From Verrucomicrobiia bacterium (GTDB lineage: Bacteria; Verrucomicrobiota; Verrucomicrobiia; Limisphaerales; JAEYXS01), in assembly GCA_036405135.1 (NCBI GenBank), contig DASWYF010000037.1, forward strand, positions 90,016-154,015: DNA of 64,000 nt, read 5' to 3'. Shown piece after piece: positions 3,344 through 6,256 of the stretch. Position numbers and translations under genes: made by a program. Position 1 is the first letter of the stretch, and each line of letters opens with the position of its first letter. Under the pieces are notes generated by a model that ran no database searches, was not told where the DNA came from, and saw only the letters and a program-made list of their open reading frames with translations.

Positions 3344-5308
3344 ATGATCGCACCGAAAGACTCCATCGAACCGCACAGCAGCGAGCAGTTGCCCAAGTCC
3401 AAGCGCGTCTATGTGGCGGGCCAGCTCCATGCGGATGTCCGCGTGCCCATGCGCGAGATCGAGGTCGGCGATACGAAGTCCTACACCGGTGCTGTCACGA
3501 AGAATGCGCCCGTGCGCGTCTATGATTGCTCCGGTCCGTGGGGCGATCCCGCCTTCACCGGCCGCTCGGATGAAGGTCTGCCCGCCTTGCGCCGTGACTG
3601 GATCATGAAGCGCGGTGACGTGGCCGAATACGAAGGCCGCGAGGTGAAGCCCATGGACAATGGCTACCTCTCCGGCAAGCACGCGGAATTCGCCAGCAAG
3701 GCGGAACGCAACCGCCTCGTGGAATTTCCCGGATTGCTGGGCAATCGCCGTCAGCCTTTGAAGGCGAAGAGCCATCCCGTCACGCAGCTCTGGTATGCGC
3801 AGCAGGGCATCATCACGCCGGAGATGGAATACATCGCCATCCGCGAGAACATGGGCCGGGCGAAGATGGCGGACCTCGCGAAGGACAATATTCGTAACGA
3901 CCTGAACAAGCAGCACGCTGGTTCCACGCAGTTGCCGAACAGCGAATATTCGCCCAGCGTTTTCCGCCGCTTCCCGCAACGTATCCCGAATGAGATCACC
4001 GCTGAATTCGTCCGCAGTGAAGTCGCTGCCGGACGCGCCATCATCCCGGCGAACGTGAATCACCCGGAGCTGGAGCCCATGATCATCGGGCGTAACTTCC
4101 TCGTGAAGATCAATGCGAACATCGGCAACAGTGCCGTCGCTTCGAGCATCGAGGAAGAAGTCGAGAAAATGCGCTGGGCCACCAAGTGGGGCGCGGACAC
4201 CGTGATGGATCTCTCCACCGGCAAGAACATTCACGCCACGCGCGAATGGATCTTGCGCAATTCACCTGTGCCTATCGGCACTGTGCCAATTTATCAGGCG
4301 TTGGAGAAAGTCGGTGGCAAGGCTGAGGACCTTACGTGGGAGATTTATCGTGATACGTTGATAGAGCAGGCGGAGCAGGGTGTGGATTATTTCACCGTGC
4401 ACGCCGGCGTGCTCCTGCGCTTCATCCCGCTCACGGCGAACCGCATGACGGGTATCGTCAGCCGCGGCGGCAGTATCATGGCCAAGTGGTGCCTCGCGCA
4501 TCACAAGGAGAGCTTCCTCTACACCCATTGGGACGAGATATGCGACATCATGGCCGCGTATGACGTCAGTTTCAGCATCGGCGACGGCTTGCGGCCAGGC
4601 TCCATCGCGGATGCGAATGACGAGGCGCAGTTCGGCGAACTCCAGGTGCAGGGTGAACTCACCAAGCGCGCATGGGCAAAGGGTGTGCAAGTGATGAACG
4701 AAGGCCCCGGCCACGTGCCCATGCACATGATCGAGGAAAACATGGCCAAGCAACTCGAGTGGTGCCATGAAGCGCCGTTCTACACGCTGGGGCCACTCAC
4801 GACGGATATCGCGCCCGGTTACGACCACATCACCAGCGGCATCGGTGCCGCTATGATCGGTTGGTACGGCTGCGCCATGCTGTGCTACGTCACGCCGAAG
4901 GAACACCTCGGCCTGCCGAACAAGAAGGACGTGAAAGACGGCGTGATCGCCTACAAGATCGCCGCCCACGCGGCGGACATCGCCAAGGGCCATCCCGGCG
5001 CGCAATATCGCGACAACGCCCTGAGCAAAGCCCGCTTCGAATTCCGCTGGGAAGACCAGTTCAACCTCGGCCTGGACCCCGTCACGGCGCGCGAATTCCA
5101 CGACGAAACCCTCCCGCAAGAAGGCGCGAAAACCGCCCACTTCTGCTCCATGTGCGGCCCGCATTTCTGCTCCATGAAGATCACGGAAGACGTGCGGAAA
5201 TACGCGGCAGAGCAGGGGATCGCTGAAGAAGAGGCGTTGAAGAAGGGGATGGAGGAGAAGAGTAAAGAATTTGTCGAAAAAGGTGCAGAAGTTTACTCAA
5301 AGGCCTAA
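3344..5308 (+). CDS. thiC: Phosphomethylpyrimidine synthase ThiC
   Basis: 654-aa ORF of ThiC length. It has the C-terminal Fe-S motif [14 protein letters not shown] and sits behind a TPP riboswitch. Confidence 0.95.
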
Positions 5309-5340
5309 GAGTGGCGTGTCGCGCCGAAGCCTTAGTGTAG

Positions 5341-5377
5341 GCGGAAGAAGGGCTCAGAAGTTTATTCGAAGGCGTGA
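5341..5377 (+). repeat. Displaced copy 2 of the thiC 3-prime coding end
   Basis: 5348-5377 reads KGSEVYSKA-stop, against KGAEVYSKA-stop at the true thiC end (5279-5308). My hand alignment gives 21 of 27 nt identical. There is possible further similarity back to 5341 if one indel is allowed. Confidence 0.7.
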
Positions 5378-5411
5378 TAGATTTTAGACGCGTTGGGCGC
5401 GTCATCGGCTA

Positions 5412-5951
5412 ATGCTCAACGAACTTGATATTGTACGCGATGTTTCCATCCGCCTTGAGCGGGGAGGCATCGCTTTCATGCTTACGGGTTCGATGGCGAT
5501 GAACTACTACGCCCAGCCGCGCATGACTCGTGATATCGATGTCGTGGTGGCGCTCGCTCCGGGGGATGTAGAGGGTATCATCAAGGCCTTCTCGTCGGAC
5601 TATTATGTCTCGCGGGATGCTGTGATGAGTTCCATCCAGAATCATTCCATGTTCAATCTGATCCATCTGGAAAGCGTCATCAAGGTGGACTGTATTGTTC
5701 GCAAGGATATCGCTTACCGGCAGATGGAGTTTGGCCGCCGTCAGCGCATCCAGATCGAAGATTTTTTCACATGGATCGTGAGCAAGGAAGACCTCATCAT
5801 CTCCAAATTATTTTGGGCCAAGGATTCTCATTCTGAGCAGCAGTTGCGAGATGTGAAGAATCTCGTGGATACAGGCTTTGATGCGGCCTATATCCAGCAC
5901 TGGACGCAAGAGTTGGGAGTGGCTAGCTTATGGGAGCAATGCAAACCATGA
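5412..5951 (+). CDS. Minimal nucleotidyltransferase-fold protein (function unknown)
   Basis: 179-aa ORF. It has the GS...DxD pattern typical of the pol-beta NTase fold (FMLTGSMAMNYY ... TRDIDVVV). Its stop overlaps the next start in an ATGA. Confidence 0.55.
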   Translation: MLNELDIVRDVSIRLERGGIAFMLTGSMAMNYYAQPRMTRDIDVVVALAPGDVEGIIKAFSSDYYVSRDAVMSSIQNHSMFNLIHLESVIKVDCIVRKDIAYRQMEFGRRQRIQIEDFFTWIVSKEDLIISKLFWAKDSHSEQQLRDVKNLVDTGFDAAYIQHWTQELGVASLWEQCKP

Positions 5952-6166
5952 GTGACACGCCTCCGGAGATCGCTGAGATGGTTCGTGCCCGGCTCATGGC
6001 GCGCTCTGGTGCGGAACGCTTCCGCATGGGAGCGGATATGTTCGTAGCGGCCCGCCGGATGGTATTGGCCTCCTTGCCTGCGGATATCACTGCTGAGGAG
6101 CGCAAGCGGTTGCTTTTCGAGCGGATTTATGGAGAGCCGTTTCCTATGGCGATTAGGCTTGGGTGA
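5948..6166 (+). CDS. Small hypothetical protein coupled to the NTase-fold gene
   Basis: 72-aa ORF starting at the ATG of an ATGA overlap with the upstream stop (5948-5951). No recognisable motif, so coding status is uncertain. Confidence 0.35.
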   Translation: MSDTPPEIAEMVRARLMARSGAERFRMGADMFVAARRMVLASLPADITAEERKRLLFERIYGEPFPMAIRLG

Positions 6167-6214
6167 TGAGAGACACGAAACTAACAACCCAAAACTCGAA
6201 AACCTGCGCTAGCG

Positions 6215-6256
6215 GAGTTTGTAGAGAAGGGCGCGGAGGTTTGTTTGAAAGCGTGA
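6215..6256 (+). repeat. Displaced copy 3 of the thiC 3-prime coding end (probable native end)
   Basis: Reads [13 protein letters not shown]-stop, against [13 protein letters not shown]-stop at 5267-5308. My hand count is 28 of 42 nt and 11 of 13 aa identical. Mismatches are mostly at third codon positions. It uses G/C-ending codons like the body of thiC. Confidence 0.75.

Follow-up and report, generated by a model that had tools for sequence, protein, structure and literature searches.

We describe stacked gene ends behind thiC in a 64,000-nt stretch of DNA from a Verrucomicrobiia bacterium (GenBank assembly GCA_036405135.1, contig DASWYF010000037.1, positions 90,016 to 154,015), hereafter called the window. 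Three copies of the sequence encoding the ThiC C-terminus follow each other here, a native thiC end has been displaced by a foreign one in a sister lineage, the second copy is linked to a two-gene cassette, the gene content behind thiC varies among relatives and comparable arrangements recur in other genomes. We see an even chance that these ends are the seams of an additive island at the thiC 3' end, whose units were inserted one after the other by host recombination or repair. The inserted units are small toxin-antitoxin-like and defence cassettes, each provided with a substitute thiC end.

Three thiC ends and the replacement of a native end

The original prediction, drawn from the sequence alone, had placed ThiC C-terminus copies at 5267–5308 (copy 1, in use), 5348–5377 (copy 2) and 6215–6256 (copy 3). 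All three were confirmed, with translations as claimed and stop codons in register, and copies 1 and 3 agree at 28 of 42 nt and 11 of 13 residues, just as the earlier hand count had given. Matches of at least six of nine residues to KGAEVYSKA, followed by an in-register stop, were counted in 300 shuffles of the window; they occurred 0.007 times per shuffled window compared with three times in the real one, and no shuffle contained a match of 8/9 or more, or of 11/13 or more, residues. Such a chance expectation, together with a match at the protein level whose stops preserve the register, makes it extremely improbable that the copies match by chance or belong to a conserved structured 3' untranslated region (UTR) of thiC. 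A short hairpin does stand behind the stop codon of each copy, as a structured UTR would have it, and the one behind copy 2 resembles those after copy 1 and after the native end of the related contig L001. However, Rfam returned no match in 3000–8500 besides the thiamine pyrophosphate (TPP) riboswitch, and the arrangement is not kept in relatives: L003 and L004 have single thiC ends with no displaced copy, and of the 80 thiC loci at species level that most resemble the window, 76 are free of a duplicate. The structured UTR, which the original prediction had named as its own alternative, is thereby refuted. As the spacers fold into weak, mostly non-significant hairpins, no stable structure is claimed.

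Copies 1 and 3 differ by ten synonymous third-position changes and one stop-to-stop change, and the codon pairs TAC/TGT and TCA/TTG each combine one synonymous change with one transition. The two substitutions that copy 3 carries, Y>C and S>L, are of an inactivating type. Since the Tyr replaced by Cys in copy 3 is retained in each of the 120 close ThiC homologues, copy 3 is considered slightly decayed. Apart from the stop codon and a natural A/S variant, all differences between copies 1 and 2 are synonymous (hand counts). These mainly synonymous and stop-to-stop differences support the proposal that the copies are orthologous gene ends of different lineages and no fresh duplication, and at least two insertion events are needed, as had been predicted. 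The codon contrast put forward at the same time held in part. The G+C content at third codon positions (GC3) is 0.31 in copy 1, 0.56 in copy 2, 0.62 in copy 3 and 0.80 in the thiC body, with a drop at about 5260; the contrast is weaker than it seemed, since native thiC ends in relatives reach only about 0.62–0.63, which makes codon usage on its own a weak guide to origin.

The supply of a replacement end by an incoming segment was seen directly in the metagenome contigs L001 and L002, which share the upstream mqn genes with the window and whose ThiC is 97% identical to that of the window (89–97% among homologues). A look-up of the exact ThiC protein of the window returned no recorded entry. 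Over the thiC body (3344–5170), DNA identity to L001 is 93.6%. The last 138 nt of thiC in L001/L002 are an outlier, with 28 of 81 nt different from the window over the comparable stretch, and the C-terminus in use is unlike that of all 120 closest ThiC proteins, which without exception end EFVEKGAE[VIL]Y[AS]KA-like. A second thiC end of 129 nt starts 41 nt past the stop codon; it differs from the window at only 7 of 81 nt and encodes exactly the C-terminus of the window. As the end in use is divergent and the displaced copy window-like, the native end of this lineage was displaced by a foreign one. The Verrucomicrobiota locus L087 gives the same picture: identity to relatives is 69% for the end in use, 80% for the displaced copy and 89.5% for the thiC body.

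A divergent end in use beside a conserved displaced copy, found in both L001 and L087, is the opposite of what decay in place predicts. This makes it very unlikely that the resident thiC end was duplicated in situ, by a long target-site duplication or a hairpin-joined tandem duplication, and diverged later. The overwhelmingly synonymous and stop-to-stop differences speak against such an origin as well, as both copies must have evolved as working ends, and so does the linkage of copy 2 to its cassette in three genomes. Tandem duplications are known to be joined at short palindromic repeat elements, and the near-identical repeats of the loci L116, L145 and L185 described below could fit a duplication; for the window, L001 and L087 it is largely refuted.

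Comparison with L001 suggests that copy 3 is probably the original end of the lineage. It matches the native displaced copy of L001 at 35 of 42 nt, or at 37 of 42 with Y>C and S>L undone (hand count), which comes near the 93.6% of the thiC body, and the 18 nt behind it match the sequence after the native L001 stop at 12 positions in a hand alignment, which is weak. Copy 3 could instead be an end carried in by the unit holding the DGQHR gene further downstream.

Cargo-free unit, nucleotidyltransferase cassette and variable region

The end at 5261–5308, which includes copy 1, is probably foreign. Differences between the window and the native copy of L001 rise from 7 of 81 nt at 5180–5260 to 13 of 48 at 5261–5308 (Fisher p = 0.01), and the nearest relative of copy 1 is the foreign end in use in L001 (35/42). 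The 39-nt spacer behind it agrees with the spacer of the foreign L001 end at 30 of 35 positions, compared with 22 of 35 for the native 3' UTR of L001 (hand count), and its terminus TAGGCGGAAG directly abuts the displaced copy in both the window and L001. Because of this likeness and the common terminus, 5261–5347 is regarded as a discrete, cargo-free unit of 87 nt belonging to the same family as a 179-nt unit of L001. The spacer is the stronger argument here, stronger than codon usage, since GC3 is also low in native ends. Two other origins were considered and rejected: the spacer is no ordinary conserved thiC 3' UTR, being far closer to the foreign spacer than to the native UTR of L001, and the unit was not inherited from a common ancestor of the window and L001, as the order of the copies misfits any later insertion of the cassette.

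The spacer holds a 24-nt hairpin motif (GCGCCGAAGCCTTAGTGTAGGCGG / GCGCCGAAGCNNTAGNNTAGGCGG) at 5321–5344, behind the thiC stop, which occurs once in the window. It was found in 78 unrelated metagenome contigs (L005–L082), most often as GCGCCGAAGCTTTAGCGTAGGCGG, and in one viral contig only. The motif is a small hairpin with a bulged G and contains GTAG; its closing pair covaries (81% paired versus 46% in shuffles, with 0 of 500 shuffles reaching the observed value). It was compared with REP elements (RAYT-associated repetitive extragenic palindromes), which are short imperfect palindromes with a conserved GTAG and many copies per genome. Rfam gave no match for the spacer or for the motif loci. 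About 10 of the first 60 contigs have the motif within roughly 200 nt of a tRNA or transfer-messenger RNA gene, and it also occurs as inverted pairs and, in L081, as a 34-nt tandem array.

The absence of an integrase between the copies, as originally stated, was verified: the only open reading frames (ORFs) there encode a nucleotidyltransferase (5412–5951) and a 78-aa protein (5930–6166). The nucleotidyltransferase scores 26.4 bits against PF19502 (DUF6036; cut-off 23.6) and 23.0 bits against PF08843 (AbiEii; cut-off 22.5), and has no match in NCBIfam, PADLOC or PHROGs. Its 5341 homologues at E ≤ 1e-10 are always about 179 aa long. The 78-aa ORF has no family match; nevertheless, an ORF of 67–76 aa follows the nucleotidyltransferase in every context seen, which marks it as a conserved partner and the pair as a widespread two-gene module. 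When examined as an AbiE-type system, the module showed no AbiEi; its partner is the downstream 78-aa ORF, and the AbiEii score lies barely over the cut-off.

Among the thiC loci fetched, this cassette was found twice more, both times in Verrucomicrobia. In L092 it begins 7 nt past the stop of the thiC end in use, and in L084 it is found 4 kb downstream of thiC, directly after a decayed remnant resembling copy 2 (16/24 nt). These arrangements identify the thiC end as the left edge of the cassette. Judged from the sequences, this end is the one in use when the cassette stands first and appears as a truncated copy once something has inserted ahead of the cassette. The same cassette family was also met at a second gene: in L185–L191, nucleotidyltransferase and small ORF lie between moxR and a DUF58 gene, inside the moxR–DUF58 operon. 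There a direct repeat of 60 nt from the moxR 3' end stands on both sides of the cassette (L185 5913–5975 and 6750–6812), with 56 of 60 nt identical; of the differences, listed as five, three are synonymous, one is F>I and one stop-to-stop. As the cassette family also occurs at the moxR end, the gene end that is repeated does not serve the cassette as a fixed attachment site, and the duplication of a gene end around a cassette is not specific to thiC.

Table 1. Features of the thiC locus in the window, in window coordinates
Feature	Position	Strand	Evidence or remark
TPP riboswitch, 5' of thiC	3090..3234	+	Rfam RF00059, E=6.7e-9
thiC coding sequence, 654 aa	3344..5308	+	ORF list; native-type to ~5260
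Replacement end in use, contains copy 1 (5267-5308)	5261..5308	+	divergence from L001 native copy, GC3 4/13; probably foreign
39-nt spacer closing the cargo-free unit	5309..5347	+	holds hairpin motif 5321-5344
Copy 2, thiC end (truncated) of the nucleotidyltransferase cassette	5348..5377	+	KGSEVYSKA*, without degenerate change
6-bp G+C hairpin GACGCG TTGGG CGCGTC after copy 2 stop	5387..5403	+	fold -7.7 kcal/mol, z=-2.7
Cassette gene 1, 179-aa nucleotidyltransferase (DUF6036/AbiEii-like)	5412..5951	+	Pfam
Cassette gene 2, 78-aa ORF, 22-nt overlap with gene 1	5930..6166	+	ORF list
Cassette right arm, terminus CTGCGCTAGCG abuts copy 3	6167..6214	+	sequence
Copy 3, displaced thiC end	6215..6256	+	comparison with L001 native displaced copy
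Remnant like start of native thiC 3' UTR	6257..6275	+	hand alignment, weak evidence
Low-G+C islet: DGQHR/DndB-like gene 6297-7361 and 259-aa ORF 7369-8148	6297..8148	+	Pfam, NCBIfam
Tannase/feruloyl-esterase gene, right border	8376..9863	-	PF07519 2.9e-68

The DGQHR gene begins 40 nt past copy 3 in a stretch with a G+C content of 0.47, in agreement with the original description, and its product was identified as DGQHR/DndB-like (PF14072, 1.1e-20; TIGR03187, 2.4e-31). Neither this DndB/DpdB-like protein nor its unannotated 259-aa partner reaches the Dnd or Dpd equivalog cut-offs, and no other dnd or dpd genes lie near the islet, which may be an orphan two-gene module of the defence type. No fourth thiC-end remnant follows the islet within the window.

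The window, L001 and L002 carry three different gene sets downstream of thiC, between conserved borders. The mqn–thiC left flank is common to all three, and the tannase gene on the right, convergent to thiC and the conserved limit of the variable region, is shared by the window and L002 (L002 10276–10351 against window 8380–8455: 83% match; tblastn 88% over 25 aa).

Upstream of thiC, the TPP riboswitch scores 54.2 bits, just under the Rfam gathering score of 54.3; it has a 36-nt insertion in one stem, and the default threshold of Rfam would miss it. The riboswitch probably controls transcription that would be able to continue past thiC into the cassettes. These share the orientation of thiC, and transcription reading through from it may include them; a promoter and terminator scan of 5200–8450 stayed at background level. 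Elsewhere in the window, the large ORFs encode restriction, signalling and surface proteins. A second defence cluster lies on the minus strand at 17119–29524 and comprises a type III restriction enzyme (Res, 17119–20190, with a C-terminal endonuclease domain; N6/N4 methylase, 21355–23283), a GmrSD-type endonuclease (23316–25067) and a 1234-aa SNF2-like helicase (25820–29524).

Recurrence in other genomes, recombinases and junctions

Duplications among the 80 thiC loci were identified in L087, L116 and L145. The Verrucomicrobiota locus L087 has three copies with PIN-like and Phd/RelE-like cassettes. L116, from Georgfuchsia (Betaproteobacteria), has a ParD-like/ParE pair between repeats of 66–70 nt that are identical at 66 of 70 positions, and L145, from Sideroxyarcus (Betaproteobacteria), a Bro-N gene between the copies, followed by a restriction-modification system. 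Larger arrays were obtained from metagenome contigs: in L171, four to five displaced thiC ends separate Phd/ParE, DUF2283, PemK and HicB cassettes, all co-oriented with thiC, and L172 carries HicA and Zeta cassettes. Copies of 54, 12 and 20 residues are present in L165–L168. The unit nearest to thiC is free of cargo in the window, L001, L087, L166 and L171. The variable content of the window, L001 and L002, the arrays in other Verrucomicrobia and the single duplications in Betaproteobacteria bear out the prediction that the thiC 3' end is a hotspot for accessory DNA.

Two metagenome contigs, L169 and L173, hold a thiC-end fragment with cargo; the sequence retrieved upstream of it, 10 kb and 6.5 kb respectively, contains no thiC. 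In L173 the fragment is accompanied by an RHH/ParE pair (6549–7577), and in L169 (10001–10198) it lies beside methyltransferase and Z1-type genes. A unit composed of a thiC end with cargo to its right may thus move to other places.

A search of the protein database with a 51-residue ThiC tail returned 816 clusters of short ORFs (52–87 aa) representing truncated thiC ends, many of them with N-terminal extensions not derived from thiC. Hundreds of clusters of 52-aa ORFs (within P0121–P0240) are annotated as phosphomethylpyrimidine synthase. In the contexts inspected, most such ORFs turned out to be 3' fragments of thiC that had been displaced and whose start was called at an internal Met, and L170 was a frameshifted thiC; many of the 52-aa clusters are probably a systematic annotation artefact of displaced thiC ends. 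The matches in L170 and in L115/L124 were rejected as displaced copies, as they are frameshifted thiC genes.

A single ThiC C-terminus and an alignment of it were each used to scan 2.9 million viral contigs, and a thiC end was found in one of them, L163 (IMGVR_UViG_3300049797_000020), with a truncated fragment of 59 codons at 965–1144, preceded by DNA unrelated to thiC and followed by genes for both terminase subunits, large and small, for a DUF3987 helicase and for a CHC2 primase. This 9.4-kb contig has no integrase, and a search for relatives of its helicase returned L163 alone. Among GenBank phages, all tblastn matches were complete thiC genes from records that are mislabelled or contain host DNA. 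The original prediction had proposed a database search with 5309–6214 for integrase-carrying relatives; blastn in a distant setting gave no match in plasmid and phage collections.

Recombinases were not detected at the thiC loci either. The segment 5309–8375 encodes the nucleotidyltransferase, the 78-aa protein, the DGQHR protein and the 259-aa protein and no recombinase. A regular expression for tyrosine-recombinase motifs found none in the window and about 90 thiC loci, a scan for which these data offer no positive control, and none is listed among the Pfam neighbours of seven arrays. Serine recombinases were covered by Pfam on selected ORFs and by the precomputed neighbour lists. In total, about ten duplications or arrays with flanks of 6–10 kb are free of a recombinase. 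The view that the units are heavily decayed remains of integrase-carrying elements is therefore not supported: these arrays have no recombinase and non-conservative right junctions, the unit beside thiC is a discrete segment of 87 nt whose spacer matches that of L001 at 30 of 35 positions, and the nucleotidyltransferase cassette travels as a two-gene unit.

As expected of integrative elements, direct repeats of the target 3' end flank the inserts and the insert supplies the end in use. A fixed crossover with conservative junctions was not found overall; L116, L145 and L185 are compatible with one. In the window the displaced copies begin at −30 and −42 nt, elsewhere at 36–230 nt, so that the overall range is 30 to about 230 nt. 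Directly to their left lie short non-coding arms of two families. Arms of family B, with the terminus TAG(G)CGG, stand at five thiC positions (window copies 2 and 3, L001, L087 copy 3 and L165/166), and those of family A, about 85 nt long and ending in GTCAA, occupy two positions and were met in L087, L171 and L172. For three cargo-free units the two junctions could both be located, and each shows a loss of target sequence, amounting to 9 nt (L001), about 18 nt (window) and about 33–39 nt (L087). A conservative integrase loses no target sequence, which argues against the action of a local one.

The family A module (...acagcccg...gggcggagacgctgggcagcg.ttcg.gtCAA) was located in L171 (9040–9100 and 9850–9960), L087 (6610–6706) and L172 (about 10670–10741). 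In L171 it interrupts the thiC-end copies between the FHDE and TLPQ codons, and the ThiC in use reads through into the module, acquiring the C-terminal extension ...AELYSTTNGADRDEAT. The CGPHFCSM codons were considered as a single junction site; the 20 informative ORFs, a query-biased sample, formed loose clusters at −50/−54 and −70/−71 aa and no single site. Several displaced copies start at or near the C-G-P-H codons (window about 5153–5163), whose DNA, TGCGGCCCGCA, forms a 5-bp inverted repeat around a central C and is possibly a recombination-prone quasi-palindrome. One ORF from the database (P0145) joins the antisense translation of a thiC end to a sense thiC end at CGPH.

Proposed assembly of the array and comparison with known systems

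If the ends are the seams of successive insertions, the window would have been assembled in four steps. Copy 3 would have been the end of the ancestral gene, with a short hairpin behind it and the tannase gene at some distance downstream. The nucleotidyltransferase cassette with its 78-aa ORF would then have arrived with a thiC end ancestral to copy 2 as its leading edge; by an in-frame splice this end would have become the working one, and copy 3 would have been shifted downstream from position −42. In a third step, the 87-nt cargo-free unit, consisting of 48 nt of foreign thiC end (copy 1) and the 39-nt spacer with its hairpin, would have been spliced in likewise, trimming copy 2 to 30 nt. 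The DGQHR islet would have entered separately, beside the native 3' UTR.

From the junctions we infer a homology-anchored, non-conservative insertion by the host machinery. The left junction would form by homologous pairing inside thiC, whereas at the right a defined donor terminus, TAG(G)CGG(AAG), would be joined non-conservatively at varying thiC positions with loss of 9–39 nt of target. This non-conservative joining at varying positions favours host recombination or repair over a local integrase. Candidate processes are homology-facilitated illegitimate recombination and break repair in which a foreign template is copied as far as the hairpin, and the incoming DNA would derive from other thiC loci. 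A unit with thiC body to its left and a thiC-end fragment to its right could spread to any genome with a similar thiC by ordinary recombination, with gene body and displaced end as arms. Short cargo-free units would do so most easily, which would account for such a unit next to thiC in five loci.

A more general form of this proposal is tentative: arrays would be built free of any integrase from units with a gene 3' end on the left and a hairpin terminus on the right, spliced in by host recombination or repair, and the displaced gene-end fragment would act as a portable right-hand homology arm. If this were true, toxin-antitoxin and defence cassettes would concentrate behind thiC and genes like moxR in at least two phyla, and a new route of accessory-gene accretion would exist, possibly with a hairpin-specific nicking enzyme acting in trans.

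Several points weigh against assembly by the host machinery. The foreign origin of copy 1 is based on moderate statistics (Fisher p = 0.01; GC3 0.31 against about 0.62 in native ends), homology arms of 30–42 nt are marginal for RecA, and the left crossover of the cassette event is not visible, since a later insertion overwrote it. The relatives are known here only as contigs of uncultured organisms, with no donor or circular form observed. The arms of families A and B are conserved and have precise termini, as a site-specific system would leave them; two successive copies in L171 share the same junction; the repeats of L116, L145 and L185 overlap with no loss of target, which fits a conservative integrase or a Campbell-type crossover; and the viral contig L163 carries its truncated thiC end beside primase, helicase and terminase genes.

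These last features would also be left by a tyrosine or serine recombinase supplied in trans by a helper element, with an attP mimicking the thiC 3' end and the units as its integrase-less, att-flanked remnants, comparable to the cis-mobilisable elements beside integrative elements at fda or to the arrays of partial tRNA genes that tycheposons leave behind. Such a recombinase would explain why each unit is bordered by direct repeats of the target end and comes with a replacement end, why junction-adjacent arms are conserved across genomes, and why the overlapping repeats are near-identical in L116 (66/70), L145 and L185; stacked integrations separated by partial target genes also have a precedent in the literature. 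We nevertheless hold it to be a doubtful explanation, given the failure to find a recombinase in the window or in any of the arrays, a thiC end in only one of 2.9 million viral contigs, junction positions that vary even within one arm family, three junction pairs that lose 9–39 nt of target, and the use of a different gene end, that of moxR, by the same cassette.

Assembly by successive insertion resembles several known systems in part. Additive flexible genomic islands and tycheposon stacks at tRNA genes likewise consist of cassettes beside one target gene, separated by repeats of its 3' end; newer arrivals displace older ones outward, and the content varies among close relatives. At thiC, and once at moxR, the target is protein-coding, so that each unit needs an in-frame end, and the repeats are 30–230 nt of diverged coding sequence in contrast to an exact tRNA segment of about 20 nt. 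The thiC arrays also differ in that no tyrosine recombinase was found in any of them and the cargo consists mainly of two-gene toxin-antitoxin modules.

The phages 21 and e14 integrate into icd of E. coli with DNA that carries a substitute 3' end with mostly synonymous differences, leaving the original end as a pseudo-fragment on the far side. The substitute end of a metabolic gene and the displaced original fragment are common to icd and thiC; however, these phages encode an integrase and have a fixed core and conservative junctions, whereas the thiC units are 87–900 nt long and integrase-less, with variable junctions and loss of target. At the 3' end of streptococcal fda, ICEs (integrative and conjugative elements) as well as cis-mobilisable elements (CIMEs) accrete in tandem arrays that include att-flanked units without an integrase of their own. 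CIMEs lie next to ICEs, or descend from them, and these have integrases that can be recognised and att repeats that are identical; at thiC such a partner was not observed. Integron cassette arrays, including integrase-less attC clusters, are similarly small, promoter-poor, co-oriented and rich in toxin-antitoxin genes and also contain "empty" units. They differ in that the thiC locus is without IntI and its repeated element is a fragment of the neighbouring gene; no attC-like sites were noted in the thiC array, for which no formal attC scan was made, and no recombinase lies on either side of thiC.

Closest in mechanism is homology-facilitated illegitimate recombination during natural transformation, in which one end is anchored by homology, the other is joined non-conservatively, nucleotides of the recipient are lost and no dedicated recombinase takes part. 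It has been described as a rare laboratory event, and we know of no case in which it builds recurrent cassette arrays at one gene or uses a defined hairpin terminus. In the literature searched, no paper describing thiC as an attachment site was found, only unrelated ones.

Defence and toxin-antitoxin genes cluster in hotspots, and the route by which small recombinase-less cassettes arrive there is poorly understood. Displaced thiC ends explain spurious annotations of thiC fragments, among them hundreds of clusters of mis-called 52-aa ORFs in public databases, as well as chimeric ThiC C-termini. The thiC locus departs from known stacked islands by a target used in more than one phylum, small units, variable, non-conservative junctions and the fact that no recombinase was found. 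Stacked partial ends of a highly conserved gene are a clear and easily searched signature, and they provide a concrete system for asking whether trans-acting recombinases or ordinary host recombination build such arrays.

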